Positions 4,892 to 38,176 of a stretch of DNA of 64,000 nt are shown here, in pieces. The notes under the pieces were generated by a model, which saw only the letters and a program-made list of their open reading frames with translations, did no database searches and was not told the origin of the DNA. A program made the translations under genes and the position numbers. How positions within the stretch are numbered: position 1 is the stretch's first letter; each line of letters begins with the position of its first letter. Source of the DNA: Flaccisagitta enflata (lineage: Eukaryota); contig OZ231126.1 in NCBI GenBank assembly GCA_965153355.1, positions 39,184,001 through 39,248,000 of the forward strand, in the 5' to 3' direction.

Positions 4892-6100
4892 TATTCATAT
4901 TACCCTTTCGACCGATATTAGAAGATGATAACGACAAGGAAAAGAAGAAATCGCCCGCGGGAGACAATTCCAGATTGCCCCAACAGTTGCATGAATGCAA
5001 AAAGATCAGCGCTTTAACAGAATCCTGTCTTGCACTGGAGAAGGCTAACAAGGAATTGAAACAAAAATACGAATTGAAAAGTCATGCAGAAAAGTTACAC
5101 AATGATAAACAGGGTGAAGAATTCAAAAATCGGCAAAAAGATGAAGGTATGTGCCGCCAATCCGACTTCGCTGTTGTTGGTTTGAAAATTGTTGGACCGA
5201 TCATATGAATGTCAGTTGTAGCCGGTCCTGCGTGGACAGATGGAAAGTCGCATGGCACCACAGCGCCTCAAATGCTGACTTTGTCTGATTCCATGAAAAA
5301 GTACGATTTTCAACATTAAGAATTCATATACGTGTAGAGCCTCCATCGTGGGGGACACTGTTGGCCCTATCTTTTGGCGTTGCATTGTACTTTTGGGACC
5401 TTGGCGCTGACGTTCTGGTGGGAAAGGAACAATATCTTCGATTTTATCAAAGACGTAAACTACAAGGTAGGAGTTTAGTAAGGACCGCGATGCTGTTAAA
5501 CCACTGTCTCAAAGGTGTCTCATTTAACTTGATTTGCCAAAGATATAAAATTCATCATTAAGACAAAAAAGCAGTGTTTTTTTTTCATGGCACAATATGT
5601 GGTTAATTTTGGAGTTAGCGAGCTAATCATCTGTGTAACAAGGTTGCAGCAAGGTTGCTATGGATAACTAACTTATCTTAAATTGAAATCCTTAATGTTA
5701 TATCATAACAATTTCACATAGCATCCTCGTGGCGAAATGAAGTTAAGAAGTGCTTCAGATATCATTTTTGCAATTTTTGTCCATCCCTTTAATCCAATAG
5801 CTAAATAGGGAATTAAAAAAATCACAAAGATAATTGTTTTCCTTTTCTCAAAATTCATTTGTCTTTCCTTTTAGAGTTGAATGAGGAAACAAATTTTCAA
5901 TGATCTTTTGTTGCTAAAGAAAAAAAATCACACAATTATTTTACAAAAATCACTCGCAAAAGCAAGACGAAAATGTTATGGGCATTTTCTGTTACACAGA
6001 TGCGCAGTCTCAACAATGCAGTTTGTAGTGTCTTGAACCAACAAATTATGTTATGCAAATTGTTTTTAAAAATGTATCAAAGAAAAAGAAAAACAGTGAG

Positions 6101-6783
6101 TGTCATCAATTGCGCCGTATTTTGTTATCCTCTTGTCCATCTACAGGAAATCTCGCAAATTTCGTTATTTCGGGTGTCGCTCCAGGACTCCTCTTCCTCA
6201 TCATCCTCCTCCTCTCACGACTCCTCGACTTCTCTCCTCCTCATCCTCGACTTCTCTCTTCCTATGGACTCTTTTCTGGAGAGAACTTTATCAGGATTCT
6301 TCGTCTTCAATCAAGAATAAATGACTCATTTAAAGTTCGACTAAAGATCACGCAAAGATCATTTTTAGATTTAAAGACTCATTGCCTCGCCATTGCTATG
6401 ATATATTGTGCATATCCTTGTTTTAGATTTCTCTTTTTCCCCCAGTGCAAGCGAGAAAGCTTCCTCTGTATATCGTTTCTATAGGACATTAATGTGGTTA
6501 TCTCGGACTTCTGCTGTCATTCCCCCCCTTCCGGAAATCATTCATCCCTGACTCCTCAGGTAGCGAGCCTTGTCAATGATGTGGTCTGGCCCACTTTTCC
6601 TTTTTGGCTCATCCTAATATCCGCCCCCCCCTCTCCCTTTTCTCATTTATCATAGAACTTACAGATCCCTTCATTCTCCAATTCGCGTATTCGTTCTAGC
6701 GGGATTCTTAAGACGGAGTTACTCAGCGATCATCAGGGCATCTAGCTAGCTAGTGAACTGTTCATACGTCACGGACTCGCACA
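6101..6783 (+). repeat. 5' LTR
   Basis: TGTCATCAATT...GGACTCGCACA; matches 17325-18007 except three substitutions seen by eye (6109, 6263, 6549). Confidence 0.97.
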
Positions 6784-6806
6784 ATCTGTAAGTTCTGACA
6801 GTTCAC

Positions 6807-6823
6807 TGGCTCCCTTCGGTGAA
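6807..6823 (+). promoter_or_regulatory. Candidate primer-binding site (imperfect tRNA-Asp-like)
   Basis: TGGCTCCCTTCGGTGAA resembles the complement of a eukaryotic tRNA-Asp 3' end (TGGCTCCCCGTCGGGGAA, from memory). It lies 23 nt downstream of the LTR, which is atypical. Confidence 0.4.
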
Positions 6824-7062
6824 AGCAAGCGAACAACACCCGCCTCCCCTTCCTCTTCACCCTTCCGGTCACGACGAAAGCTCAAGAACATTCTCCTCCT
6901 CATCTTCCTCATCACTTCTCCCTCCTCCTCATCCTCCCAATTACGGTGAAAGCTCAAGAACGTTCTCCCCTTCCTCATCTTCCATTACGTCATTCTTCCT
7001 CCTCATCATTCTAACACGGTAAAAGACAAAGAAACTCTTCCTCTTCCTCATCATCCATCACG

Positions 7063-9924
7063 ATGGCAGCAAAGGCCCGCGCAGAAAAAGCCAAAATTCT
7101 GGAAGATACTTTGAGAAAGATGCCCGACTTCAACGCCGTGATCGTGGCAGCGGACGCCGGAGCTATCGGCGGAAGCGGCGCCTCGGTAAACACGGCGATG
7201 ACGTCGGACTTCCAAACGGAAAGTGACGAGAGATCTAGAGAAGCGAAGGCAACGGCACAAACATTGGGACTGCTCGCGCGCTTCTTCGCTCTGCGACATG
7301 ACGATGTATTGAAAGAGTTCGCCGGCGTCGACGATCATGACGCACATCAGGCATTTCTCTACATTGACGACATGCGCGTCGCGCTCGTGGGAAAAATGTG
7401 GCTTTTCCACGAAATGATTACGAAAAAACTATTTCCCGCCAACACGAGAGAGGACATTCACGGACGAAAATCGGCTGGAAACCACATCAACGTCATCTTA
7501 AAAGACTTCCTCCATACGCGTCGCGCATGCCTTTCACAAGAAACCTACGACGACCCGGACTACGCGCCAAAACCGCCAACAAAAACTGACTTTGTACAAA
7601 ACTCCGCCAGAAAAGGAAGTGTATCGGACAGAGCATTGGCGCTTGCTAACTCCGCCAAGGACTTCATCGGCGAGGTCACATCGCCGAGAAAAGCGAAATC
7701 ACTCGCCAACGATAAGTTTACGGGAAAGAAAAATGATAAAAAAACGGCGTCGCCGGCGCCCCCCGGAACATCGGGGGAAACCGCGGCGCCATCGGTCAGT
7801 GACGTCAAAGTGGATAAGAAAAAACTCACGCCTAAGAATACAGAAGGTGATAAAAAAGAACAAGACCCGGCGACGGAAGACCCAAACGACGCCGACGACG
7901 CCGCCACGAAAAAGTCAGGCGCGCCTGAAGAAGACAGCGCCGAAACTGACGACGAAGCGGAACAAAAGCGCCGCCAAGCAGGAAACGCAAAAGCGGCCGG
8001 CTGGGTCGCTGATCAACAAGAACAACAAATCGCGCAACAAAACAATCAATACCATGACGCCGTCCAAAGCATCATCAACACGAGCGAGACCCACGCGATA
8101 GCAATTGAAAAAGACAATGAACATTATGAAGAAGTCCTCAAAAGAGAAAAAGAAGAAACAGAACGCGTGAAAGAAGAATTGAGAAACTTGGAAGCAATCC
8201 ACGAATTACAAAGAAAAAAACGACGAGAACAAGAAAAGAAAAAAGACGAACTAAAACAACAACAACAACAGCAGACGAACAAAGCCATACAAACGAACAA
8301 AAGACAATTAACAGCTCAAAAGAGACAAGCAGAGATAATTCAAAGCGTGGAATTGGTTCAAGCGGAAAAACAAGACGCGAGTGAAAAACTAGAAAAACTA
8401 AAGCGCCAGATTCAGAACAATTTGGACGAATTAACAGAAGAAGAAGACGAGGTACAGTTCATCGACGCCGTATTCTCGTCGACGCAAAATGACGCGCCGA
8501 CGCCAAGCGAGAGCGCCGCGACAACAACCGGAAGTGGAAAGAAAAAACGCCGATCCCCACACAAAAAGAGCCCAAATGCAGCGAGATATCCTCCTCCCAA
8601 TCTACCTCCCCTGGGCGATAACTTCCCAAAAGACGTCAGACGAGTGGGCGTCGAGTACAAACCGGCGCCAAAACCGGCGCCCAAACCGGCGCCGAAAATG
8701 CAGAACGGCGACGCCGCGGGAGGTCATGCATCCCCCGCGACTGACGCCAGACGAACAACTAATACGATTTCTTCAGCAACCGCGGCGCCGCAGCACGACT
8801 TCTCTAAATTCATTCGCACGCTAGAATTGGACACCGTCAGAAGAAGCATCGTTGGGGTCCGACCAGAGACACTATTTAAACAATACGATTCGAAAAAAAA
8901 GGGCGAATACAACTCCTTAATGAACCAGTTCGACTCGGCTTTCGGCTTCATCCCTGGAATAACCGGCAACGAAAAAGTCACGGAATTATCGGGACATTGG
9001 TTTGCTGGAGCAGCAAAAAAGGCGTTGAAGGCAGCAAGACCGACAGCGGACGATCCGAATGGAGACATCGCCTACGCAAAAGTGAGGTCACATCTAGACT
9101 CAATTTATGGCCAAGACATTGATTCCGCCGCCGACGCCCTCGCCAGACTGAAGGAAGGCGGAGTCGTCGCCAAAGACAGCCTCACTGCGCATCAAGACCT
9201 CTACCTCAACATGCTGGAGGCGGAAAGCTCGGCGTTATCAGCGTCGTCGACGGAGTTATTCGACAGAACGTCCACCCTGATCGAGATCATGTCGGCGAGA
9301 TTACCGCACCAAATGGAGAAATTCTTCGAAACGTATGAAGAAGGAGAAGGATTCCAGAAGCTTCTCGAATTCATCCATCGGCGAATTACAATCCTAAAAA
9401 CCATTCAGGTGACGACTCAAAAACCACAAACAATAAAAATTCACGCGACGGAGACAAAAGAAATTAAAAACCAACAATACGGCCCCAATACATTCGCCCA
9501 ACAAGTACAAAATTCCCCAAAGAAGGAAGAAAAGAAGGTTAGATGCACTCACTGCCAAGGCCTTCATCAGACGACAACATGCAACCGTCTTCTCATCCTA
9601 TCGCTGCCCGAAAGAATTGAAATCGCCAATAAAGCCCGAATGTGTTATCATTGCATGGAGACGACGCACAACGCTAAAGACTGCCCGGAGAAAAAAGAGG
9701 TCTCATGTTCAATGTGCAATAAAAAAGGACACATCGCCATGTTTCACGGCAGGACCTGGCTTAACCAAGCCAATGGACAGACGGACCGCTTCCGACGAGG
9801 CGGCAATGACACCAACCTAAAAATCGTCGATCCTCCGAAAACGGCGCCGCTCAACGCCGGCGCAGCGGGAAACAACGCCGCCGCGAAACAAACCGACGAG
9901 GAAGTGGAAAACCCCCCCATCTGA
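7063..9924 (+). CDS. gag: BEL/Pao Gag (953 aa)
   Basis: Long coiled-coil region and three C-terminal Zn knuckles (CTHCQGLHQTTTC, CYHCMETTHNAKDC, CSMCNKKGHIAMFH), typical of BEL/Pao. Confidence 0.93.
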   Translation: MAAKARAEKAKILEDTLRKMPDFNAVIVAADAGAIGGSGASVNTAMTSDFQTESDERSREAKATAQTLGLLARFFALRHDDVLKEFAGVDDHDAHQAFLYIDDMRVALVGKMWLFHEMITKKLFPANTREDIHGRKSAGNHINVILKDFLHTRRACLSQETYDDPDYAPKPPTKTDFVQNSARKGSVSDRALALANSAKDFIGEVTSPRKAKSLANDKFTGKKNDKKTASPAPPGTSGETAAPSVSDVKVDKKKLTPKNTEGDKKEQDPATEDPNDADDAATKKSGAPEEDSAETDDEAEQKRRQAGNAKAAGWVADQQEQQIAQQNNQYHDAVQSIINTSETHAIAIEKDNEHYEEVLKREKEETERVKEELRNLEAIHELQRKKRREQEKKKDELKQQQQQQTNKAIQTNKRQLTAQKRQAEIIQSVELVQAEKQDASEKLEKLKRQIQNNLDELTEEEDEVQFIDAVFSSTQNDAPTPSESAATTTGSGKKKRRSPHKKSPNAARYPPPNLPPLGDNFPKDVRRVGVEYKPAPKPAPKPAPKMQNGDAAGGHASPATDARRTTNTISSATAAPQHDFSKFIRTLELDTVRRSIVGVRPETLFKQYDSKKKGEYNSLMNQFDSAFGFIPGITGNEKVTELSGHWFAGAAKKALKAARPTADDPNGDIAYAKVRSHLDSIYGQDIDSAADALARLKEGGVVAKDSLTAHQDLYLNMLEAESSALSASSTELFDRTSTLIEIMSARLPHQMEKFFETYEEGEGFQKLLEFIHRRITILKTIQVTTQKPQTIKIHATETKEIKNQQYGPNTFAQQVQNSPKKEEKKVRCTHCQGLHQTTTCNRLLILSLPERIEIANKARMCYHCMETTHNAKDCPEKKEVSCSMCNKKGHIAMFHGRTWLNQANGQTDRFRRGGNDTNLKIVDPPKTAPLNAGAAGNNAAAKQTDEEVENPPI

Positions 9925-10149
9925 CTAGGAGCGACCGGCGTGGAGAATTTCATCGCGCCGGATGATGATGTGATTCGCCCGATTGTACTCGTGCGGATTC
10001 GCAACGTCGAGACCGGCGCTTCGGAAATGATTTACGCCATGTTAGATACATGTGCAGATAAGGATGTAATCTCGGAAAACATAGTAAAGCGACTCAACCT
10101 TACATACACGACAAAGACAATGACAGTACAAACAGTTGAAACAAAATGA
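9925..10149 (+). CDS. pol: Pol N-terminus: aspartic protease, in frame with gag after the TGA
   Basis: IYAMLDTCADKDVIS retropepsin-like active-site motif; same frame as gag; ends at TGA 10147 because of a 1-nt frame change. Confidence 0.85.
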   Translation, partial: LGATGVENFIAPDDDVIRPIVLVRIRNVETGASEMIYAMLDTCADKDVISENIVKRLNLTYTTKTMTVQTVETK

Positions 10150-13100
10150 CACAAAAACGCAGACTTGCAAATTTTCAATTGGAATCCATTCACTCATCGT
10201 ACAAAACTAACGTCGGACAAGCCCTAGTGGCTAAACTATGGAGCAGCGACAATGACATTCCACCAGCAAAACGTGATTTGACTAAATTCAACCATCTCGA
10301 CGGCATTAAATTCGACGACGAGGACGTGGAGGTCGGTATGATCATCAGTGTTGCGCACGCCGATACATGGACTCAAGGACCGTTTATTCGCGGCCCAAAA
10401 AAATCCCCCACCGCAATGTGGACGGAGTGGGGATACACGATCTTTGGAGTCGGCTGCCAACGCGACCATCGCGACGTTTCCGTGAACCTCCTCGCCGTTG
10501 ACGACACCAACGTTAAATACGACTACGAACGCATCTTTTATCACGACTTCCCCCAAGTGACGGCTAAAGAAATGGGAGACTCCCACGCGAATCGCAAAGC
10601 AATTCTAATGTTACAAGAAGGCATTCGATTCGACGAAGATAAACAGAAATACGTGTCGGTCCTACCGTGGTTGAAGAATAGAGAAGAAGCGGCAGCCATC
10701 CTCAACGTTCTCGATTCCGAAGGAATGGCGAAGCGCAGACTAATCTCAATGATGCCACGATTTGAACACGACCCTGTCTTTAAAGAAAGAGTCTTCTCGG
10801 AAATGGACAAATTCTTCACGAAAGGATACGCTACTCCCATCCCAAACAGCGAAATGGACCCCAGCATCCCAAGATGGTATCTTCCCATGCATCCTGTGGA
10901 TAAGCATGGGAAGATTAGAATGTGCCATGACGCCAGAGCAAACGTCAACGGAATATGCCTCAATGACCTTCTCCTCGGCGGCCCTAACATCATCAATCCG
11001 CTCGTCGATATACTTGTCAAATTTCGGGAGAACCCCATCGCCTTCATGACCGATATTTGTGGTTTTTTCCACAACGTCCTCGTCGACGAGAAGGATCGCG
11101 AAGTCTTCCGCTACTTATGGTTCGCCGACACCAAGATGGCGGAAGTGTGGAGATACCAATTTTTCTCCCACATCTTCGGCGCCGGATCGTCATCCATCGT
11201 GACCGGATTCGTCCTCCGCTATCACGCTGACAAGATTAGGCCCAAATTCCCCGACAACGTCTATCAAACGATCAGAAATAAATTTTATGTCGATGATGGC
11301 GCCGGCGGTGGACGAACAGTTGCATCTGCACTGGAACTGAAGCAGAATCTGAAGGAGGCGATGCGTCTTGGCGGTTTCCAGCTCGAAAAATGGCAGTCAA
11401 ACGCCCCCGAGCTCGTGGACGGCGAGGAAGGACACGCAATAAAAGCCATCTCAGATTCTGCCGAAGAGAACGTCACAAAGGTATTGGGCGTCTCGTGGGA
11501 CTCGAAAAACGACAACTTCGTCTTCCAATTTGACAAAGAGAAGATCAACAAAGCCGTCAATACCCCTCATCAACTTGTGTCAGTTCAAGCGTCAATATAC
11601 GACCCCCTCGGCTTCCTCTCTCCGTTCTGCCTCCTGGGCCGCAAACTGCTACAACAAGCGACTTCCGGTTCACCTGGATGGGATTCTAAACTCAAACCTG
11701 TCGTCAAGGAGGAATTCGCCGCATGGGCGAGATCCATCATCCTCCTCATCAACATCACGATCCCCAGATGCTTCACAAAGGCAGACCTCGGCGACCCGAT
11801 TGTAATCGAATGCCACATTTTCGTGGATGCAGCACCCGGAGGATTTGGCGCCGTCGTGTACAGACTGGAGAGATATTCCAACGGCGAAGTTTTCATCACC
11901 ATCGTCACATCAAGAAGCCACGTCGTCCCCTTGAATTCAGCAAAAGCATCTCACCACAATTCCATCCCGCGCCTCGAATTAGTTGCAGCAGAAAAGGGCG
12001 TGCAGCTGCACAATTTCGTCAACAGCGCCGTGGAGATCCCATTTCAAAGGACAGTGATGTGGTCAGACAGTGAAGTGGTGTTGAAACAAATCTTTGACGA
12101 AGCAAAAGTTCACGGACCTTTCATCAACAATCGCCTATCAAAAATCTACGCAGTTACAAAGCCGGACGATTGGAGATACGTCGAAGGCCCGAGGAATCCG
12201 GCTGATCACTGTTCAAGAGGAATACGCGCGGATGAGTCCGAAAAATGGGCAACATTCCATCGCGGACCCGACTTCCTCTATCAAGACGAAAGCCAATGGC
12301 CGGTCACAACTGTACCTCGACACAAAAAGCCGACGACAATGGTCCTCGCCACGCATGTAATCCCAACTCCACCGGAAGTTCCTCTAGATGGATGCGGATA
12401 CGCCAAACTGGTCGTCGACATCGACGGCTGGTATAAAAAAGTCATGAGAGTAGCATCTCTACGGAAAATCATCGCCTTCTGGAGGAAGTATCGTCGTGGT
12501 CAAGCCCAACAACCAAATCAATGGACGGCCACGTCAACTGGAAACCTGCGTATCACCATCGCAAAAAAGAAGCCCAAACAGCCCGTCAACTTAACCATCT
12601 CAATACTCGAGTTTCGAGAAGCGGAGAACCTAATTTTCGCCGCGACTCAGAAGGTCAATTTCCCAAAGGAATGGCAGAATTTGGTGGACCGCGACATCTT
12701 TCATCCCAATTCGAACAAGGAAATGACAATGAAAAACTCCCCCCTCATCACTCACAACCCCTTCGTCGACGAGTGCGGCATCATCCGCGTCGGCAGCCGA
12801 TTGGTCAACTCTACAATTAAAGAGGAAGCAAAATTCCCAATCATCCTCCCACGCAAAGATGAAAACGTGCGCGCGTATATTCGCTTCATCCATGATTATG
12901 AACTCCATGCGGGCGCAAAACACGTCCTCAACTCATCGCGTCAACGCGTTTGGATCATCCATGGGCTACAGGAAGTGACTTCCGTCATCCGAAAATGCAT
13001 CTCATGCCAAAAAGCGTTCAAAAAGCCAATGACGCAAAAAATGGCAACGCTCCCATCCTTCCGCGTGAACCCCCTTCCTCCATACGAGTATACAGGACTT

Positions 13101-14024
13101 GATCTCTTCGGCCCAATCGGCGTAAAAATCAATAAAAGAGCGTCGTGGAAAGTATGGGTGGTGGTGTTCACCTGTATGTCAACGCGATCGGTCCACGCAG
13201 AGATCGTCATGAAACAGGACGCGAGTTCTCTCATCTTGGCAATCTGCAGATTCGCAGCGCGGAACCCCAATGTCCGCCATTTCATTTCTGATCGCGGATC
13301 TAACATGACGGCAGCGGACAAAATCCTCAAACAACAACTCGCTAATTACAACGAATCTGCGGCTCAACAACTGAAAAGAAAAGGCATCCAATGGGACTTT
13401 ATTCCCACGGCTACTCCCCATTACGGCGGCGTCTGGGAGAGGGTCGTCGGACTCTTCAAAAAGCATATAAAAGCCATGGCAATCGGCGAGTCAATTCACT
13501 ACGACGTCTTCCAAACAGCCATCGTCGAAATTGAAGCGGCTTTGAACCGCCGCCCCCTAACGGCGGTACCAGCAGAATCCAACAGCTGCGAAGCCATCAC
13601 GCCTCTTTCAATTCTTAACCCGACTGCGCGATCTCACTCCGACGTCGTCGTCATTCCTGACGCATCATCAACGGAAGTCGACCGTCTCAAATCCGCGTGG
13701 ACTAATGCCCAGGCTCTAGTCAATCGTTTCTGGAACGCCTGGAAGAGAGACTACATATCGCTTCTCCATGGACGAGAAAAATGGCAACGATCCTCAAAAA
13801 ATCTCGAAATCGACGACCTCGTCCTACTGGTGGACGAAAAAGTATCGCGCGGACATTGGAAACTTGGTCGCGTGGTAAAAGTGGAAATGGACAACGGTCA
13901 TGTCAGAAAGGCATACCTGAGAACAGCCGACAAGAAAGTGGTTCTACGAGATAGGACAAAGCTCGTGCACTTGGAGATGGACCAAGAAGAGGATTCGGAC
14001 CAACAGCTCATCTCTGTGGCATGA
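10146..14024 (+). CDS. pol: BEL/Pao Pol: protease C-terminus, reverse transcriptase, RNase H, integrase
   Basis: RT motifs WYLPMHPV, LNDLLLGGP and FYVDDG; RNase H motifs HIFVDAA and SIPRLEL; integrase HHCC (H...HAG...CISC), GLDLFGP, SDRGSN and GGVWERVV; C-terminal FWNAWKRDYI...WKLGRV. Confidence 0.96.
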   Translation: MTQKRRLANFQLESIHSSYKTNVGQALVAKLWSSDNDIPPAKRDLTKFNHLDGIKFDDEDVEVGMIISVAHADTWTQGPFIRGPKKSPTAMWTEWGYTIFGVGCQRDHRDVSVNLLAVDDTNVKYDYERIFYHDFPQVTAKEMGDSHANRKAILMLQEGIRFDEDKQKYVSVLPWLKNREEAAAILNVLDSEGMAKRRLISMMPRFEHDPVFKERVFSEMDKFFTKGYATPIPNSEMDPSIPRWYLPMHPVDKHGKIRMCHDARANVNGICLNDLLLGGPNIINPLVDILVKFRENPIAFMTDICGFFHNVLVDEKDREVFRYLWFADTKMAEVWRYQFFSHIFGAGSSSIVTGFVLRYHADKIRPKFPDNVYQTIRNKFYVDDGAGGGRTVASALELKQNLKEAMRLGGFQLEKWQSNAPELVDGEEGHAIKAISDSAEENVTKVLGVSWDSKNDNFVFQFDKEKINKAVNTPHQLVSVQASIYDPLGFLSPFCLLGRKLLQQATSGSPGWDSKLKPVVKEEFAAWARSIILLINITIPRCFTKADLGDPIVIECHIFVDAAPGGFGAVVYRLERYSNGEVFITIVTSRSHVVPLNSAKASHHNSIPRLELVAAEKGVQLHNFVNSAVEIPFQRTVMWSDSEVVLKQIFDEAKVHGPFINNRLSKIYAVTKPDDWRYVEGPRNPADHCSRGIRADESEKWATFHRGPDFLYQDESQWPVTTVPRHKKPTTMVLATHVIPTPPEVPLDGCGYAKLVVDIDGWYKKVMRVASLRKIIAFWRKYRRGQAQQPNQWTATSTGNLRITIAKKKPKQPVNLTISILEFREAENLIFAATQKVNFPKEWQNLVDRDIFHPNSNKEMTMKNSPLITHNPFVDECGIIRVGSRLVNSTIKEEAKFPIILPRKDENVRAYIRFIHDYELHAGAKHVLNSSRQRVWIIHGLQEVTSVIRKCISCQKAFKKPMTQKMATLPSFRVNPLPPYEYTGLDLFGPIGVKINKRASWKVWVVVFTCMSTRSVHAEIVMKQDASSLILAICRFAARNPNVRHFISDRGSNMTAADKILKQQLANYNESAAQQLKRKGIQWDFIPTATPHYGGVWERVVGLFKKHIKAMAIGESIHYDVFQTAIVEIEAALNRRPLTAVPAESNSCEAITPLSILNPTARSHSDVVVIPDASSTEVDRLKSAWTNAQALVNRFWNAWKRDYISLLHGREKWQRSSKNLEIDDLVLLVDEKVSRGHWKLGRVVKVEMDNGHVRKAYLRTADKKVVLRDRTKLVHLEMDQEEDSDQQLISVA

Positions 14025-14498
14025 GCAGAAAAAATATCAAAAATTCCCGGGCAATCGTCTGGGACTAATTGGTATTGCTATGATCATCATATCATCTTCT
14101 TGATCCGTTATTTTCTCTCTTAATCGCTTATATTTCTTATTTTCCCCGCCTAAAAGCTAAACTCGAGAAATATCAGGATTCCCGGGCAGTTGTCTGGGGC
14201 TATTGATGTTACTACTCTCTCTATTTTTGTTTTCTCTTTATCATCGTTCATAATATTAACAATCACTCCATTCTTGCTATTACCTTTCTTCACTTCTTCA
14301 CATCTCATGACCGGCTTCTTCCTCATCCTCGACCTCTCTACATCATCATCATCTGATCTACACATGCATATGATTATTATCTTCATATGATTCCTTGCTT
14401 GCTTCTCATCTTTAAAATTCATCCCAATCACGTCGTTACATTATACATGAACTCATGCGTTCCTCCCCATTCTTAGATCAAGAGAAAGATAATACGAA

Positions 14499-16871
14499 AT
14501 GGCGAATTTAAGCGAGACGAGCGGGCGTGGAATCGCCAAGCTGGGGACGGAAGCCGGATCACCGGCGGAAACTCCCGGCGCCGGCGAAGAAACGCCCTCC
14601 TCCTCCTCATCATTCTCATCATCAACCCCCCTTCCTCCCGGCGCGAAGAAAAAGCGCCCCCACGTCGACGCCGCCGTAGATCAAAATGCGGAAGATCTCA
14701 TCGGTCCTCTCGACTACGACGACACCGACGACCAATCTCACCACCATCCCGAGTCCATGGACACATCGGAAGCTGAGGGCACGTTTAACTCCGCCCTCCT
14801 CAACCTCTCCTCATCTCTTCCTCCTCCCTCATTCCGATGCCAGTGCGTCCCCACCTCCCTCCCCGATGACGTCAACCATGAACCCAACGTGAAATATCCC
14901 GAGAACATTCACGAACAAATTTTTCAGACTAAAACCGGCACCCCTTACTGGATCAAGCCAGGCAGGGGCATCGTTAATCACGAGGACCTCACCGTCAACC
15001 CTCCCCGCCCAGCCTTCGTTTCCTTCTCCGCCGGCGTCCAAGTCCAGATTGACGACAACGAGTGTCTGGCAAAAATCCATGCGATTGAAAACGGATCGAA
15101 GAAGGAAAAGAAAAAGTTAGCCAGAGCAGCCGCCAAAGCTAGCAGTGCGGACCCCGGAACATCGGGGGAAGCTGCTGCTGCAGAGGCGACTGCCGCGGCG
15201 CATCCCCTCCTCCCATCTTCTCGCGATGCCGCTCCTCCTCCTCCTCCTCCGCCTCCTCCTCCCGCAACTCCCGATGACGGCCTTCGGCTTCCCAACACCT
15301 CACCATACCACCACTCCATCTTCATCCCCTCCTCACTTAAGATGGACAACACGGGCCGCCTCTCTCTCGCCGCCACCATTCCTCTTCTTCCTCCTCTTCC
15401 CCAACCAGAAAACAGAGCCGACGTCAAGAGAGACTTCATCGCGTCTAAGAATCTTCTCGACCACAATAAAATATTACTAGAGCAGAAAGAGGAACAATGG
15501 ATGAAACTCGGTGGCCTGGATCCCGCCCAAAAACGATTCCTCGCGGCGGGCCAGGCCCATCACGATATTTGGACGGACATTTTTACAAAATCGTTTAAAG
15601 AACGTTTCAGCCAATGTCGTCCTGCCTCTCAAATTAACCCCGCCGATCCTCCCCTCGAGAAGTCACGCTGCTTCTTTAGGAAGTATCTCGCGGGAATCAA
15701 CGAAGATCCCAACCTAATTGAAGTATTCAATCCCATCGCACCAGCGCAGACCACGCCTCCTCCTCCTCCTCCTCCTCCTCCTTCACCTCCTCGCCATCAA
15801 TCTTCCTCGGCTCGTATTCATCCTCCTCCTCCTCCTCAGCCACGCACATCATCCTCCACTCCAGCCCGTCCACGTCCACCACCACTAATGGGCCCACCAT
15901 CTCATCCTCCTCGCCAGCAACAACAGCAGTCAAAGGACGCGAAGGGCAATGCCGGATCATCGGCGGCGCCTATACGTCCCGCGACAGCCTCCACATCACC
16001 TCGTCAACATCCTCAACATCCTCCTCAACATCCTCCATCCAGCGTCGTCAACATACCACCTCCACAGAAACGCGCAAGAAGCCCCATCCGCCACCCCGAC
16101 CAAAGACGTCCATCATCACCATCTCCAGCACGACGTCAATCTCACACACCATCACTGCATCGTCCACCCACCACTTCGTCATCTTCATCATCTTCACGGC
16201 CTCGTCAATCCCCCGGCCCTTCCTCTTCTGATAGGCCAGCAGGCCCCGGCCGTCGGTCGGGGTCGTCCTCTGGCCCGTCAAGGGAGAGGGAGGAAAAGGA
16301 GAAAGAAGAGGAAAAGAAGAAAATCGACGAGGTTTTCAAGCGCCTCGCCCTTCTCGAGCTTGAAAATCAGGAATTGAAGCAGACTGTGACGTCGTTGAGA
16401 AAAGACGCGACGGCACAAAAACAACAACAAAAAAGACAAGAACAACAACAACAAAGGGACTTCAACCTGCAACAACAACAACTACAACAACATCGATCCG
16501 ACATTAACATCGTCGCTCATCGCACCCTCCAAACCACGGCGGCGGTCGGTAACGTGGGACTCGTCGTCGAATCGGCACGACGCCCTATATCGGAGATGTG
16601 GCAACGCCATCAACAACAGACGTCGCCATCTCCATCCCGCCATTCTTCCCACGATCGCCCGATGAAATTACCGGCGATAGACTTTACGTCATCTCCTTCC
16701 AACGACGAGATGGATTTCGCCTCCGAAGAGACGATTGACGATTGGGCGGCGGCCGCAAGTAATTCGCAGCCAGCCGACAACGACGACGTCTACACCCTCA
16801 GCCCGGCGCCAAAAGGAGGAACCTATCGTGGAGGCGCCACCGCTTCCGGAAGGAAATCTCGTCCTCACTAG
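14499..16871 (+). CDS. Accessory ORF3 of the BEL element (790 aa; Pro/Ser/Gln-rich with C-terminal coiled coil; function unknown)
   Basis: Uninterrupted 790-codon ORF between pol and the 3' LTR, starting GAAATGG; preceded by a polypyrimidine-TAG acceptor at 14475-14476; no signal peptide or TM segment visible. Confidence 0.85.
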   Translation: MANLSETSGRGIAKLGTEAGSPAETPGAGEETPSSSSSFSSSTPLPPGAKKKRPHVDAAVDQNAEDLIGPLDYDDTDDQSHHHPESMDTSEAEGTFNSALLNLSSSLPPPSFRCQCVPTSLPDDVNHEPNVKYPENIHEQIFQTKTGTPYWIKPGRGIVNHEDLTVNPPRPAFVSFSAGVQVQIDDNECLAKIHAIENGSKKEKKKLARAAAKASSADPGTSGEAAAAEATAAAHPLLPSSRDAAPPPPPPPPPPATPDDGLRLPNTSPYHHSIFIPSSLKMDNTGRLSLAATIPLLPPLPQPENRADVKRDFIASKNLLDHNKILLEQKEEQWMKLGGLDPAQKRFLAAGQAHHDIWTDIFTKSFKERFSQCRPASQINPADPPLEKSRCFFRKYLAGINEDPNLIEVFNPIAPAQTTPPPPPPPPPSPPRHQSSSARIHPPPPPQPRTSSSTPARPRPPPLMGPPSHPPRQQQQQSKDAKGNAGSSAAPIRPATASTSPRQHPQHPPQHPPSSVVNIPPPQKRARSPIRHPDQRRPSSPSPARRQSHTPSLHRPPTTSSSSSSSRPRQSPGPSSSDRPAGPGRRSGSSSGPSREREEKEKEEEKKKIDEVFKRLALLELENQELKQTVTSLRKDATAQKQQQKRQEQQQQRDFNLQQQQLQQHRSDINIVAHRTLQTTAAVGNVGLVVESARRPISEMWQRHQQQTSPSPSRHSSHDRPMKLPAIDFTSSPSNDEMDFASEETIDDWAAAASNSQPADNDDVYTLSPAPKGGTYRGGATASGRKSRPH

Positions 16872-17324
16872 GAGGCGATCTCATCGGTGGAGACGTATAT
16901 CGGGTCGATGTCGTCAAGATCGTGGACGGACGCCGGATCACCGGCGGAAAACCCACGGTAAATGCGGCGACAAAACCCGACGCGTAGCTCCCACCATTAT
17001 CGTCCTCCTCTTCATCTCGATCCTCCTCGCTGCGAAGCCGAATTCAACGCCGGAGCATCGGCGTGAATCTCGGCAAAAGTAACGGCAAACCCATTTTCTC
17101 ATTATTCTCGTCCTCCTCCTCATCTTCTGTACATAGTTCTTGTTTGTCTATTCTGTCGTGTTTATTCTTTTCTGTTCATCGTGTTCCCCCTCCCCCCAGT
17201 CCACATCATATTAACTTTCCTCAAAATTTTTTTTTTACTCGCTTGCACAGTAGTCATGTTTTCCTCTAGTTTTCCCCCCCCTTCGAGAAATCAACTTATC
17301 TGTCATATTGACAGATCCTGGGGC

Positions 17325-18007
17325 TGTCATCAGTTGCGCCGTATTTTGTTATCCTCTTGTCCATCTACAGGAAATCTCGCAAATTTCGTTATTTCGGGTG
17401 TCGCTCCAGGACTCCTCTTCCTCATCATCCTCCTCCTCTCACGACTCCTCGACTTCTCTCCTCCTCATCCTCGACTTCTCTCTTCCAATGGACTCTTTTC
17501 TGGAGAGAACTTTATCAGGATTCTTCGTCTTCAATCAAGAATAAATGACTCATTTAAAGTTCGACTAAAGATCACGCAAAGATCATTTTTAGATTTAAAG
17601 ACTCATTGCCTCGCCATTGCTATGATATATTGTGCATATCCTTGTTTTAGATTTCTCTTTTTCCCCCAGTGCAAGCGAGAAAGCTTCCTCTGTATATCGT
17701 TTCTATAGGACATTAATGTGGTTATCTCGGACTTCTGCTGTCATTCCCCCCCTTCCGGAAATCATTCATCCCCGACTCCTCAGGTAGCGAGCCTTGTCAA
17801 TGATGTGGTCTGGCCCACTTTTCCTTTTTGGCTCATCCTAATATCCGCCCCCCCCTCTCCCTTTTCTCATTTATCATAGAACTTACAGATCCCTTCATTC
17901 TCCAATTCGCGTATTCGTTCTAGCGGGATTCTTAAGACGGAGTTACTCAGCGATCATCAGGGCATCTAGCTAGCTAGTGAACTGTTCATACGTCACGGAC
18001 TCGCACA
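17325..18007 (+). repeat. 3' LTR
   Basis: Near-identical to 6101-6783; followed by the TSD GTGAG. Confidence 0.97.
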
Positions 18008-18142
18008 GTGAGAGCCTTGATATTAGTCCCTTTGCATTTATCAAAGGGGGCAAAATAAACGCCAACTTTTGCTACGTGAAGCACCCAAGTTGAAGAGACA
18101 GCGTCTTAAAATGCGTAGACACCTTTCTGAATGAGTTCTTCT

Positions 18143-18365
18143 TAGTTGTGGACACGCAACTCTATAAGAGGCTTTGACCGTCTGTTGTTCCGTCCGTCGG
18201 TCCGTCCATTGGTCCGTCCGTTGGTCTGTGAGCTTGAGTTGAAAAGTGGGAAAACAAGTGTTTAAAAGTTTTTTGAGTATGTGTTTGGGGAGTGGGGTAT
18301 GGATTGGGGTTGGACGCCCCTGCCCACCCGTCTGCAACGATATTGTGACCCCGCTTCACTTGTTT
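18143..18365 (+). mobile_element. Helentron/DINE-1-like non-autonomous repeat family A (representative copy)
   Basis: Recurrent TTAGTTGYGGRCACGCAACTCTATAAGAGG, then (GTCC/GTCG)n microsatellite, then GCCCCTGCCCACCCGTC...TGACCCCGC. Related copies near 3523, 22810, 26080-26240(-), 26505-26680, 34310-34480(-), 37595-37790(-), 41055, 45230-45370(-), 45788-46005, 58262-58365(-) and 63890(-). The family assignment is inferred from architecture. Confidence 0.65.
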
Positions 18366-18956
18366 TGTTAAATACGCCATGTATGTACCTAACGTGCGTA
18401 GAGTTGATAGTTTCTTTTTTTCCACCCTTTCATTCTACTAGATGCCGGTGTGTTACCAAAACTCGAAACAATATTTGAGTCTCTTTCAGTTTTTGACTTG
18501 GAGGCCTACCATCTTTTCCTGACTTGGTTTTGGATATTTACGGCACCCCCACAAGTCCAGGAAATAGAATGGCATTAGGTGATTTGCGCCATAAAAATAG
18601 ATCTGTTTGAAACATGTTTACTTAGTAGAAAATCTTAGCCGCTTATACATTTAGGTTCTATCATCTACTGACTATGTAGTTCAAGTCTCCGTCTTGCATT
18701 GTCATGGCTGACGGCCCTGAATTTTGCATTTTACGTATGAGGGTATTTTTACTCCATTTTCCTAGATCTCAGCAAATTGCACTTTTGAGTTCATTTAGTA
18801 CTCTGAGGTTTATACCTTGTCCTCTATATGAATGTCCTGCCCTGAATCTAAACCAAGGGGATAAATTGGGTCTATCTACATTGATATTTGGTAAGAAACA
18901 AATGATTTCGGGCCTAAAATGATTCTATTTCCTGATATCATATAAATGATGGGACT

Positions 18957-20919: not shown

Positions 20920-21156
20920 GTAAGTTTAGGCTGTGATTAACATAGTACATTTCATTTCCTAGTTTGTTCCAATGTTCAGCCAAAAAGACGACTCTCGACG
21001 TAGTTAAAAAGTAGTAGATGAGGGGTTTGTTTGCTGCTATGTTTTTTTTCTGTTTTTTTTTTTTCTCTCTCTGCATGTCTGCTGCTCTGTTTTTTCTGCA
21101 TGTCTGTTTTTCTGCATGTCTGTTTTTCTATTTGTCTCTCTCGGTCATACTTTCTT

Positions 21157-21250
<94 letters not shown>

Positions 21251-21265
21251 TCCATTTCCTCTCAG

Positions 21266-22293
21266 AGTTGATCGCATCCCCCATTCCGCTGCGACTTACC
21301 AAAGCTAGTTCAGAGACAACAGGTGGCGTTGGAATGGTCGTGGAATCGATCGGAGCGAAGATTTTGCTGTGGGGATCTAGAAAAAAATCCCCCAACGTCA
21401 TCCGGATGTACGACGTGAATAATGAAACATGGGCGGAAAAGGAAGCGGGAGGCGAAATACATCCAGGTTACGCGAATGCCGCGAGTGTCATCGTTGGAGA
21501 AGAGATTTACATGTTCGGCGGTTTCCGAGATGAACAGAGAGGGAAACAAATAGAAACAAACTGCATCTCAAAAGTCTCGACAAAAACTGGCGAATTCCAG
21601 CGTATCAAAATCAACGGAGTTTCTCCTTTTCCCCGCTTTAAGGCAGTTGCCTGGAGTCACGAGGGTGATCTATGTTTCGGATTTGGTCACAGTGATGGGA
21701 GGCAAAAGATTTCGGGAGAGAGTTACATCGAAGAGAACAGAAGATGGACCCGAAAACCCGGCTTGGGTTTCACAAATGAAATCCTGCGATTTGACAAAAG
21801 ACAAAACTCTTTTGCCTCGCTCATCACGAATGGATCTTCGCCAAAACCCCGCATTGGATTTGGCTTTGCCAAATTGGATGGAAAAATATACGTTCACGCT
21901 GGACAAGGAGAACACTATAATGGGTTGAAAGACTTCTTTCGAATGGATTTAAAAATCAGTGAATGGACTTCACTGAAGGCCCGCGGTCTTCCATACAGCC
22001 TTCAATATCACTCCCTGTCGCTGCTCTCTTCGAAGCAATTGATGCTGGTTGGTGGAGAAAAAAGTCCTTGGGAAAAATCAAATCGAGTCATGATTTACAA
22101 TGTACAAAACGGTTCATGGACGGAAGATCAGCTTCTGCCGGACTCAGTCGGCGGGGGTGAAGGCGGTGGATTGGTGTACCACAGAGCCGCAGAAGTGAAA
22201 AACGGAAAGAATGTCACAACAATCATTTGTATGGGAGGAAAAGTGAAAGGCAACAAACTCTCCAAGCACATGCTTCATTTTGACTTACCCTGA
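21266..22293 (+). CDS. Kelch-repeat beta-propeller terminal exon
   Basis: IYMFGGF, PFPRFKAVAW, PKPRIGFGFAKLDGKIYVHAG, YHSLSLLSSKQLMLVGG and IICMGG; the CAG acceptor at 21263-21265 is phase-compatible with the EGF exon. Confidence 0.85.
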
Positions 22294-25903: not shown

Positions 25904-26735
25904 GAGGCAATTGCAACTGTCTGTTGTTCCCATTTCATTGTGAATTTGGAAAAAAAATTTGCACGCGAAAAAAAAAAGAAAAAGAATAAAATCATGCCTC
26001 GACCCAGTGACTTTCCTAAGGACCATAACGGCTCTTATCTCACCTTATCAATTTTAACAAGGCCGGATTCACGGCTACCTTAGTCGCGTGCGGGTGGGCA
26101 GGGGCAGTATTTGAGTTACTAAAGCACTTGGGCAAGTGCAGTGAGGCCAAAGACCGCAAAAAATAAAAAAAGTAAAATGGGGACCGACCGACCGACGGAC
26201 AAAGCGGGGTGTAGTGTCGCGTAGCACGCGACTAAAAAACATGAAAAATGGTGACTCGATACAAGTGTACTGGGTTAGAACAGATATCATGGAATTGATA
26301 ATTCTGCATGATGTTGTACAGAATTCTGTGCGATCAATAGTTTTGGAGCTATGATTTTTTGAATCTTTGTTTATTTTTGCGCATTTTTCGCGTTTTCCCA
26401 AAAAACAAGGAATCGAGTTAGTTGTAGTCTATTTGAACTTCGAAATGTCCCAGGTGATAACTGTGAATCAAGGCAGCACAGTCTCTCTCTCATTTCAACT
26501 CTGGACTCTATAAGAGGCATTGTCTGTCAGTCCATCCCTTGGTCTGTTGGTCCGTCTGTCCATCCGAGTGGAAAAGTGGAAAAACAAGCGGTCTAGATGC
26601 TTTTTGAGTAGGGGTTGGGGTGTGAATGGGGGTTGGATGCCCCTGTCCACCTGTCTGCAGCGATATTATAACCCCGTGTTACATGTTTTTCTCTGTTTTT
26701 CTCTCTGTCTCTCTCTCCCCCTCTGTCTCTCTCTG

Positions 26736-37430: not shown

Positions 37431-38176
37431 CAGAGAGCCAGACAGCCAAAAAGATATTCAGTATCTGAGATAAAGAGAGACTATGTCAGAGGCAGAGGCT
37501 CAAATTTTATGCAACTTCCTCTTCCACTTTTACTCAACGCACTGTCGCATGTTGAAGTTGTTTCAATGGATTATAGGTGATGTTGATCTTTAACAAGTGA
37601 CGCGGGGTCACAATATCGTTGCGGACGGGTGGGCAGGGGCATCCAACCCTAATCCATACCCCAAGTCCCCCACTCACATGCACAAAAAGCACCAAGAACA
37701 CTCGTTTCCTCACTTTTCGACTTGTGTCCACGGACAGACCGACGGACGGACGGACAAAGCCTCATATAGAGTTGCGTGTCCGCAACTAAAAACCTTCCTT
37801 CTCATAAACCGATCTTCGAAGCTCGGAATCTTTGGCAAACGTTTCAGTTTGCTCAACTAAACAATTTCAGCCAACATGTGTTCAGAAATAGACATGGCCG
37901 GATACTGGATCAATACGTAGGTAGTCGCGTACCAAGTTGAAACCAACCAATATCACCTCTACCTCAGCCATTCCCGTGATTTTAGCGCCACTATAGATAA
38001 ACGACTGGAACATAATTCTTCAAAAAAGCATAATATCACAAGCAAGCATTGCCTTGATATAGTTTACTGTCAGTAGCAGTACTGTGCTGCAATGTTTCCG
38101 ATCGGTTTTACACAAACTTCTCAAGACCTACGGCACTGGTCTGCGAAATTCCTCGTCAGAACCACTGAGGGCGTCG

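Follow-up and report, generated by a model that had tools for sequence, protein, structure and literature searches.

The window, i.e. the whole 64-kb stretch of DNA analysed here, carries at positions 6101-18007 of the plus strand an LTR retrotransposon of the BEL/Pao type (Belpaoviridae) that inserted recently; the host of this family is a marine animal. We consider it fairly probable that gag and pol of this lineage share one frame with a single conserved stop codon between them and give rise to a Gag-Pol protein by low-level readthrough of this UGA, stimulated by the UGA-CUAG motif and a downstream hairpin. The stop codon, its context and the hairpin sequence are present in the window copy, and no AUG precedes the conserved residues of the protease.

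Structure of the element

The element has a length of 11.9 kb and was found as a single copy in a self-comparison of the 64-kb window. The following features were assigned:

6096..6100 and 18008-18012, plus strand: target-site duplication GTGAG, five identical bases outside both LTRs
6101..6783, plus strand: 5' LTR (TG...CA), 683 bp
7063..9924, plus strand: gag ORF, 953 aa, ending in ...ENPPI-TGA
9922..9930, plus strand: stop codon and 3' context TGA-CTAGGA (UGA-CUAG motif), read directly from the sequence
9925..10146, plus strand: 74 codons in the gag frame that encode the N-terminal portion of the protease with its DTC active-site motif
9935..9961, plus strand: predicted hairpin, 9-bp stem (9935-43 / 9953-61) and 9-nt loop
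10140..10149, plus strand: frame break with a second in-frame TGA (10147-49), pol continuing in the -1 frame
10146..14024, plus strand: rest of pol, 1292 aa, with the remaining protease, the RT/RNase H region and the integrase
14499..16871, plus strand: ORF3, 790 aa, rich in Pro, Ser and Gln, no Pfam match
17325..18007, plus strand: 3' LTR, pairing with the 5' LTR

The assignment to BEL/Pao is based on the LTRs with their target-site duplication, the Pao-type PR-RT/RH-IN order and the CCHC-type Gag. Both LTRs share an identity of 99.56% over 683 bp with three differences. Three CCHC zinc knuckles (C-X2-C-X4-H-X4-C/H) are located within the last 140 residues of the 953-aa gag product, for which the Pfam search yielded no match. 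In pol, the domains Peptidase_A17 (2.8e-30), DUF5641 (2.1e-20) and Integrase_H2C2 were detected above the curated Pfam cut-offs, while the match to rve (26.9 vs 32.6 bits) remained under its cut-off, as did both Asp_protease_2 and gag-asp_proteas at the start of the protease. Since pol terminates in TGA-G, UGA is a working stop codon for this element. ORF3 was considered as a candidate envelope gene and rejected, being devoid of a hydrophobic segment, a signal peptide and a furin-type site.

The gag stop codon and its surroundings

The initial annotation had described a gag gene ending in ATC-TGA-CTAG and a protease that continues in the same frame with no AUG ahead of the domain, and its coordinates proved to be exact. 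ATC at 9919-21 is followed by TGA at 9922-24 and CTAG at 9925-28, the extended context CTAGGA reaching to 9930. Past TGA 9922 the gag frame reads LGATGVENFIAPDDDVIRPIVLVRIRN...AMLDTCAD, with LDTCAD encoded at 10042-59. Beyond the gag stop, this frame has its first ATG at 10027, which is 3' of the conserved IRPIV strand, and the conserved residues DDDVIRPIVLV are encoded 5' of it.

Given the base composition of the element, CTAG would be expected after a given stop codon in about 1 of 270 cases; six occurrences of the heptamer TGACTAG were counted in the 64 kb, both strands included. Its description as a leaky context agrees with measurements in HEK-293T cells, where UGA-CUAG was read through efficiently in four mammalian genes and UGA performed best among the stop codons (PMC4132726).

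The pairing of 9935-9943 with 9953-9961 ten nucleotides after the stop, which had also been predicted in the initial annotation, was confirmed at exactly these positions. The stem is formed by CCGGCGTGG (9935-43) and TCGCGCCGG (9953-61) with seven G-C and two G-U pairs, and the spacer between the gag stop and the hairpin comprises 10 nt. Predicted from one sequence only and with only nested folds computed, the hairpin has a folding energy of -17.2 kcal/mol (z -2.9), and one of 200 shuffled sequences was equally stable; in a context of 102 nt it appears weaker (z -1.4). Since equally stable folds were obtained for 85 of the 3254 46-nt segments (2.6%) of the coding DNA of the element, the hairpin by itself stands out only slightly. 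Within the stem, third codon positions pair with each other (9936:9960, 9939:9957 and 9942:9954). The stimulation of readthrough by structures downstream of a stop codon, on which the earlier reading relied, matches the literature, in which such an effect is described for 3' stems with spacers of 7-9 nt (PMC3159437). By eye, the loop sequence AUUUC (9947-51) could also pair with GAAAU (10024-28) to form a weak pseudoknot of 5 bp about 70 nt apart.

Proposed expression of pol

Retroelements need far more Gag than Pol, and retroviruses employ frameshifting or readthrough. In this BEL/Pao lineage translation would usually end at UGA 9922 and yield Gag. A minority of ribosomes would decode this UGA by a near-cognate tRNA and continue into the protease, reverse transcriptase and integrase region, so that a Gag-Pol fusion would be made in a low, fixed proportion. 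This would probably be stimulated by the weak UGA-CUAG(GA) context and by the hairpin 10 nt downstream, which would be placed about where a structure meets the mRNA entry channel of the ribosome. We infer that readthrough is the best-fitting mechanism for bypassing the stop; motif and hairpin would then act as its signal and determine the Gag:Pol ratio.

A conserved in-frame stop combined with an expression of pol that does not depend on near-cognate readthrough seems unlikely, even when the conceivable routes are taken jointly, namely a non-canonical bypass similar to that of Tca2, initiation at a non-AUG codon such as GUG 9940, reinitiation after gag, and an internal promoter that drives a pol RNA of its own, or splicing that produces one. 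The only moderately unusual hairpin is in line with such routes, as is the start-type codon (NTG) that 14 pol-side relatives have in common at this position, although the latter may be just the first such codon chosen by the gene caller. Reinitiation after an ORF of 953 codons and initiation at GUG are generally inefficient in eukaryotes, and the absence of an AUG 5' of the conserved protease strand also argues against a separate start. A precedent for a different route is Tca2, in which a junction with an in-frame UGA and a 3' pseudoknot gave no readthrough in a reporter in S. cerevisiae, an internal promoter is present and Pol is made from the gag-pol RNA (PMC2194720). Tca2 thus shows that the combination of an in-frame UGA and a 3' structure does not always lead to readthrough in a reporter. 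In favour of readthrough, the stop of the BEL/Pao element lies in the specific context, UGA-CUAG, for which leakiness in animal cells has been demonstrated by experiment (PMC4132726).

Conservation of the stop position

The initial annotation had raised the possibility that most sibling copies carry a sense codon in place of TGA 9922. Among 24 related metagenome proteins from three homology searches, none spans the gag/pol junction, which speaks against this possibility at the protein level. On the pol side there are 17 relatives (63-99% identity), and 14 of them have their first residue at the equivalent of GTG 9940. This is the first possible start after TGA for a bacterial-style gene caller, so that each of the 14 contigs should have an in-frame stop shortly before it. 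Being choices of the gene caller, these start positions provide indirect evidence for a stop.

On the gag side, where the relatives include P0016-P0019, P0021, P0022 and P0024, proteins of 51-98% identity have a common end point and share a tail of the form E-[NT]-P-[PT]-I. P0021 (97-98% identity, 13 member sequences) ends in ...ENPPI, whereas at 51-60% identity P0022, P0016 and P0024 end in ...ETPTI and P0019 in ...ENPTI. The proteins P0017, P0004, P0030 and P0031 end in ...ENEL[LQ](L/I).

In the representative library, 23 of the 24 rows confined to the pol side (40-86% identity) begin within 12 residues of their own N-terminus; the 24th (P0086) turned out to be fused on inspection. A further 23 rows span the junction and all of them are 23-36% identical. 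Since only such distant relatives span the junction, the stop appears to be derived and subsequently kept. As judged from the protein ends, this BEL/Pao lineage has acquired an in-frame stop at this position and conserved it, with the restriction that below about 60% identity a gag/pol overlap with frameshifting would give an identical protein picture. The earlier statement that most BEL/Pao elements have a fused gag-pol is in agreement with the distant relatives in the library and with the ICTV profile.

No related loci were found in the viral contigs and genome contigs. A degenerate DDVIRPIV pattern detected nine loci in viral contigs, seven of which share one unrelated coding sequence and two of which are chance matches. 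Locus L001, the only one obtained from the metagenome contigs, was likewise rejected as a relative, as it represents a prokaryotic contig with a chance match to AMLDTC.

The comparison with sibling contigs covered four runs from four studies, in which 40 of 184 differences were listed. Third codon positions account for 36 of these 40 differences and, between the stop and 10146, for nine of the ten listed differences when counted in the gag frame (P = 3.6e-4). By this substitution pattern, protein-coding constraint continues in the gag frame directly past the stop. The contig of X2 record 11 bridges the gag stop without a gap, and within 9500-10500 one length difference to the siblings was detected, at 10142. 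The absence of differences at 9922-9930 and in the stem arms among the 40 of 184 listed is uninformative with regard to conservation. In the region 9925-9963 the four listed variable third positions (again from the 40 of 184) are all located outside the stem arms (P = 0.049); that variable third positions avoid the arms is suggestive only. Four RNA runs (X13, X15, X19 and X20) contain small shares (0.05-0.10) of the words of the 64-kb stretch.

That TGA 9922 is a chance inactivating nonsense mutation, either in a decaying copy or in a defective subfamily amplified in trans, was already doubted in the initial annotation and seems very unlikely in the light of the relatives, which end gag at this place down to about 50% identity. 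Gag proteins of lineages with 51-60% identity share both the position and the tail, the pol ORFs of 23 cluster representatives open directly after the stop, the library rows across the junction do not exceed 36% identity, and coding constraint acts on both sides of the stop. A mutational origin could be supported by the lesion which the window copy does have 225 nt downstream, and by the estimate that an LTR divergence of 0.44% over about 11 kb makes roughly one nonsense change not unexpected.

It is even less probable that the host routinely assigns a sense meaning to UGA or inserts selenocysteine at UGA 9922. The 953 + 1292 + 790 codons of the three ORFs contain no other in-frame TGA, and pol itself ends in TGA. 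A nuclear reassignment of UGA is not known from metazoans, which further argues against a sense reading. The hosts of BEL/Pao elements are metazoans according to the ICTV profile. In favour of selenocysteine, some of its insertion sites have a hairpin just 3' of the UGA (PMC3159437).

A second break in the window copy

While the account of the stop and the gag/protease boundary in the initial annotation held, it omitted the frame break at the second TGA (10147), 225 nt past the gag stop. Due to this TGA the protease in the gag frame comprises only 74 codons in the window copy. The break is located in a run of A residues that differs from the sibling contigs by one base in length, and 15 of the 16 sibling proteins reaching the site cross it in one frame. 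The DTC active-site motif precedes it and the MIISVAHAD motif follows it, so that the protease fold itself is interrupted. Consequently, the window copy cannot make Gag-Pol by readthrough alone and is probably not autonomous.

A programmed -1 frameshift at A-AAA-UGA (10143-49), and thus a double recoding, was rejected as the least probable of the explanations: the frames overlap by just 10 nt and pairing at the AAA codon could be re-established in the -1 frame, but the siblings pass the site in one frame, contigs with a different A-run length occur in all four runs and the site is situated within the protease fold.

Significance and comparison with known systems

A literature search based on titles and the beginnings of abstracts retrieved no BEL/Pao element with readthrough or an in-frame gag-pol stop. 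Reportedly, gag-pol recoding was surveyed by Gao et al. in 2003 (RNA), and this survey may list a BEL/Pao case. BEL/Pao elements have been described as having a fused or overlapping gag-pol, and an in-frame gag-stop-pol is not among the arrangements listed in the ICTV profile of Belpaoviridae.

We regard the arguments as evenly balanced for a more far-reaching scenario, in which an entire BEL/Pao clade from marine animals would have exchanged the fused Gag-Pol for a readthrough of the alphavirus/OPRL1 type with UGA-CUAG and a compact hairpin. The conserved tail of Gag, E-[NT]-P-[PT]-I, would then belong to the signal or serve the protease as a site of cleavage where recoding takes place, and the recoding would be the first of its kind described in Belpaoviridae and of independent origin. 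If the in-frame UGA-CUAG is indeed conserved in this way, a gammaretrovirus-like solution would have arisen independently in a third family of LTR elements, and the heptamer of vertebrate genes and alphaviruses would serve a BEL/Pao gag-pol as well. The element would furthermore provide a natural test set of many copies for the tuning of readthrough by context and 3' structure in an invertebrate. In annotation, a "premature" stop would not be a sufficient reason to classify such BEL/Pao elements as degenerate.

The element resembles typical BEL/Pao elements (Semotivirus) in its LTRs with a 5-bp duplication, the CCHC Gag, Peptidase_A17, the integrase and DUF5641, but differs from them in the in-frame stop, the length of 11.9 kb, the Gag of 953 aa and an ORF3 that is not an envelope gene.

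Similar to the gammaretrovirus MuLV, gag and pro-pol are found in one frame with a single stop in between and a structure downstream, which is a predicted one in the element. In MuLV gag and pol are separated by UAG, an RNA structure is located about 8 nt 3' of the stop and the yield of Gag-Pol is a few per cent (PMC3159437, PMC2194720). In contrast to the UAG, pseudoknot and purine-rich spacer of MuLV, a member of the Retroviridae, the window element as a member of the Belpaoviridae has UGA-CUAG and, after a spacer of 10 nt, a predicted hairpin of simple form.

Tca2, a Ty1/copia element of Candida albicans, is also an LTR retrotransposon with an in-frame gag-UGA-pol and a predicted 3' structure; however, this fungal copia-type element has a purine-rich spacer where the window element has CUAG (PMC2194720).

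The UGA-CUAG heptamer is identical to that of the alphavirus nsP3/nsP4 junction and of the vertebrate genes OPRL1, OPRK1, AQP4, MAPK10 and MDH1, and five of six downstream bases match between UGA-CUAGGA in the window and UGA-CUAGGC in OPRL1 and Getah virus (PMC4132726). The alphavirus signal likewise includes a 3' stem, with a spacer of 8-9 nt (PMC3159437), but this stem extends over about 140 nt, whereas the window hairpin is compact (27 nt). Unlike these cellular genes and RNA-virus replicases, the UGA-CUAG site in the window is located at the gag-pol junction of a retroelement.

Organisation of the element and its surroundings

The following features were annotated in the window:

6101-18007, + strand: complete LTR retrotransposon with paired LTRs and target-site duplication
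6101-6783 and 17325-18007, + strand: LTRs, 683 bp each, 99.56% identical (3 differences)
7063-9924, + strand: gag ORF, 953 aa, three CCHC knuckles within the last 140 residues
10140-10149, + strand: frame break of the window copy, with a second in-frame TGA (10147-49) 74 codons past the gag stop
10146-14024, + strand: pol ORF, 1292 aa, with Pfam domains
14499-16871, + strand: ORF3, 790 aa, following pol, Pro/Ser/Gln-rich
18137-18366, 26505-26689, 37592-37792, 45254-45376, 45788-46010 and 55062-55116, both strands: copies of a dispersed repeat, the first just outside the 3' LTR
21031-22293: Kelch-repeat ORF, 420 aa (Pfam, 1e-28)

The identity of the LTRs and the 5-bp duplication GTGAG flanking both of them indicate a recent insertion. 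Peptidase_A17 (2.8e-30), DUF5641 (2.1e-20) and Integrase_H2C2 were detected in pol above the curated Pfam cut-offs, and rve with a score under its cut-off; judged by sequence, this set of domains is of the BEL/Pao type. A Pfam search of the 953-aa gag ORF gave no match. Gag is unusually long, and its central region is rich in Glu, Lys and Gln. Two direct repeats, each about 145 nt long and overlapping one another (6845-6989 and 6917-7062, 75% identical), lie in the leader that separates the 5' LTR from gag.

Neither a Pfam match nor a hydrophobic segment was found in the 790 aa of ORF3, and owing to the missing hydrophobic segment and the Pro/Ser/Gln-rich composition an envelope protein was ruled out. 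ORF3 also contains runs of Pro and a short stretch of Glu, Lys and Gln resembling a coiled coil. Including ORF3 the element measures 11.9 kb and is longer than the 4.2-10 kb given for Belpaoviridae.

The Kelch-repeat ORF is probably a host gene or exon adjoining the insertion. The dispersed repeat, with matches of about 55-230 bp at 71-85% identity in six places, probably represents a short non-autonomous host element. The CpG observed/expected ratio is 1.27 in the element (6784-17324) versus 0.78 in the flanking 52 kb, and the G+C content about 50% versus about 39%.

The gag stop codon and its context

The gag ORF ends with ATC-TGA (9919-9924) followed by CTAGGA, and past the stop the gag frame reads LGATGVENFIAPDDDVIRPIVLVRIRNVETGASEMIYAMLDTCAD. 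CTAG would be expected after any given stop about once in 270 at the base composition of the element. The conserved DDDVIRPIV strand precedes the first in-frame ATG past the stop (10027). A hairpin of 9 bp with a 9-nt loop is predicted between CCGGCGTGG (9935-43) and TCGCGCCGG (9953-61), 10 nt from the stop. All junction coordinates of the initial annotation, which had proposed programmed gag-pol readthrough from UGA-CUAG and the 3' hairpin, proved correct on re-reading of the sequence.

The predicted hairpin is not outstanding. Its folding energy of -17.2 kcal/mol (z -2.9) was equalled by 1 of 200 shuffles, the z-score falls to -1.4 in a 102 nt context, and 85 of 3254 46-nt windows (2.6%) of the element's coding DNA fold as well.

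Conservation of the stop position

The translated region 9502-10146, with the stop read as X (query P0002; P-numbers are working labels of related proteins), was searched against large protein collections. Homologue searches in three length classes (near, longer, shorter) gave 13, 5 and 6 matches, all from metagenome assemblies, and none of these 24 relatives spans the gag/pol junction. On the pol side, 14 of 17 proteins (63-99% identity) start at the codon matching GTG 9940, the first ATG/GTG/TTG past the TGA. A gene caller of the bacterial type would choose this codon only with an in-frame stop closely preceding it, so such a stop is indicated for these relatives. Of the other three, P0013 and P0014 start further in, shortly ahead of the active-site motif, and P0020 begins with the ATG that directly precedes LDTCAD.

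Among the seven gag-side proteins, P0021 (97-98% identity, 13 member sequences) shares the C-terminus ...EEVENPPI with the window; P0016 ends with ...AETPTI, P0019 with ...DENPTI, and P0017 and P0004 with ...EEENELL. P0018 and P0003 end a few residues short, which may reflect contig ends. A wider search of 1.84 billion cluster representatives gave 629 matches, of which 150 were listed and evaluated, adding the C-termini ...ETPTI (P0022, P0024), ...ENELQI (P0031) and ...ENELLL (P0030). Metagenome Gag relatives carry a common tail that abuts the stop and reads E-[NT]-P-[PT]-I or ENEL[LQ].

Among the 150 matches listed, 24 were pol-side only (40-86% identity), and in 23 of them the match begins at most 12 residues from the N-terminus, shortly ahead of the DD.IRPIV motif; the remaining one (P0086) proved on inspection to be a fused form. 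The junction is spanned in a single ORF by 23 listed matches, all only 23-36% identical, the identities of the two groups having been computed over different stretches. The window copy thus appears to belong to a lineage that has kept an ORF end at the gag/pol boundary and that sits among relatives of the fused form. As none of the 24 relatives spans the junction and gag ends and pol starts coincide, the initial view that the stop is no chance nonsense mutation is upheld.

Sibling contigs

Runs carrying the label 'organism A' contain the window stretch, as do marine metagenomes of several studies. Four runs, each from a different study, supplied the Logan contigs aligned on 9500-10500, with 40 of 184 differences listed. 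Only one listed difference in this kilobase concerns length (10142); the frame of gag relative to the start of the protease is therefore preserved. Of the listed contigs, one (record 11 of sequencing run X2; 9721-9983, eight other letters, no gap) runs across the stop and extends more than 31 nt beyond it in both directions. The remaining listed records, whose first positions are 9894-9919, do not formally count as bridging.

Third codon positions account for 36 of the 40 listed differences. Upstream of the stop the share is 6 of 7, and from the stop to 10146, counted in the gag frame, it is 9 of 10 (P = 3.6e-4). The DNA directly following the stop has therefore evolved as coding sequence in that frame. 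No listed difference falls in 9922-9930 or the stem arms, which with 40 of 184 listed does not indicate conservation. All four variable third positions listed in 9925-9963 lie outside the stem arms (P = 0.049; same 40 of 184 differences), which is suggestive at most of the arms being spared.

A second frame break in the protease

After TGA 10147-49 pol resumes in the -1 frame, the two frames overlapping by only 10 nt. The break interrupts the protease, with the DTC active-site motif on one side and the later MIISVAHAD motif on the other. At this site the A run differs in length by one base in contigs of all four runs compared, and 15 of 16 related proteins that extend this far read across in a single frame (...VETK[MLIV]TQKRR...), so a recoding signal was ruled out; in the sixteenth, P0170, the frame is broken separately, a few codons before. 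The break is a lesion or minority variant of the window copy. The initial interpretation thus holds for the stop conserved in the lineage and was incomplete regarding this copy, which is broken further downstream. In the metagenome siblings P0170, P0013, P0010 and P0011 the protease region is disrupted by frame breaks or joins to unrelated sequence particular to each copy, and many family copies are therefore defective in different ways.

Possible mechanisms at the gag stop

Programmed readthrough of UGA 9922 is the best-supported reading and, given the context, somewhat favoured. The conserved protease residues encoded ahead of the first AUG would require ribosomes coming from gag. Since pol itself ends with TGA-G, UGA is a functional stop for the element. 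Mutagenesis showed that UGA-CUAG directs efficient readthrough in four mammalian genes, with UGA as the best stop, and the context is common to several alphaviruses (PMC4132726). Alphavirus 3' stems 7-9 nt from the stop raise readthrough 3- to 14-fold, with comparable structures predicted for several genera of plant viruses (PMC3159437).

Another bypass of the conserved stop is rather unlikely, but is favoured by the Tca2 retrotransposon, which has an in-frame UGA and a 3' pseudoknot, yet whose flanking sequence gave no readthrough in a yeast reporter (PMC2194720). That TGA 9922 is a plain lesion is highly improbable, as the boundary is conserved as an ORF end in relatives.

Comparison with known systems

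In gammaretroviruses gag and pol are separated by an in-frame stop that is read through. Gag-pol recoding was reportedly surveyed by Gao et al. 2003 (RNA). In our literature search neither readthrough nor an in-frame stop came up for BEL/Pao or Belpaoviridae; 'BEL/Pao' is not matchable as a phrase, so an earlier mention is possible. A fused gag-pol is the usual form of BEL/Pao elements, whereas in the window lineage the ORF ends at the boundary. In-frame stops are described in Tca2 and, between pol and env, in SIRE1 (PMC2194720); in the reporter assay of Tca2 an internal promoter was a confounder. The MuLV pseudoknot lies 8 nt past the stop (PMC3159437), compared with 10 nt for the predicted hairpin of the window, and CUAGGA of the window matches CUAGGC of OPRL1 and Getah virus in five of six bases (PMC4132726).
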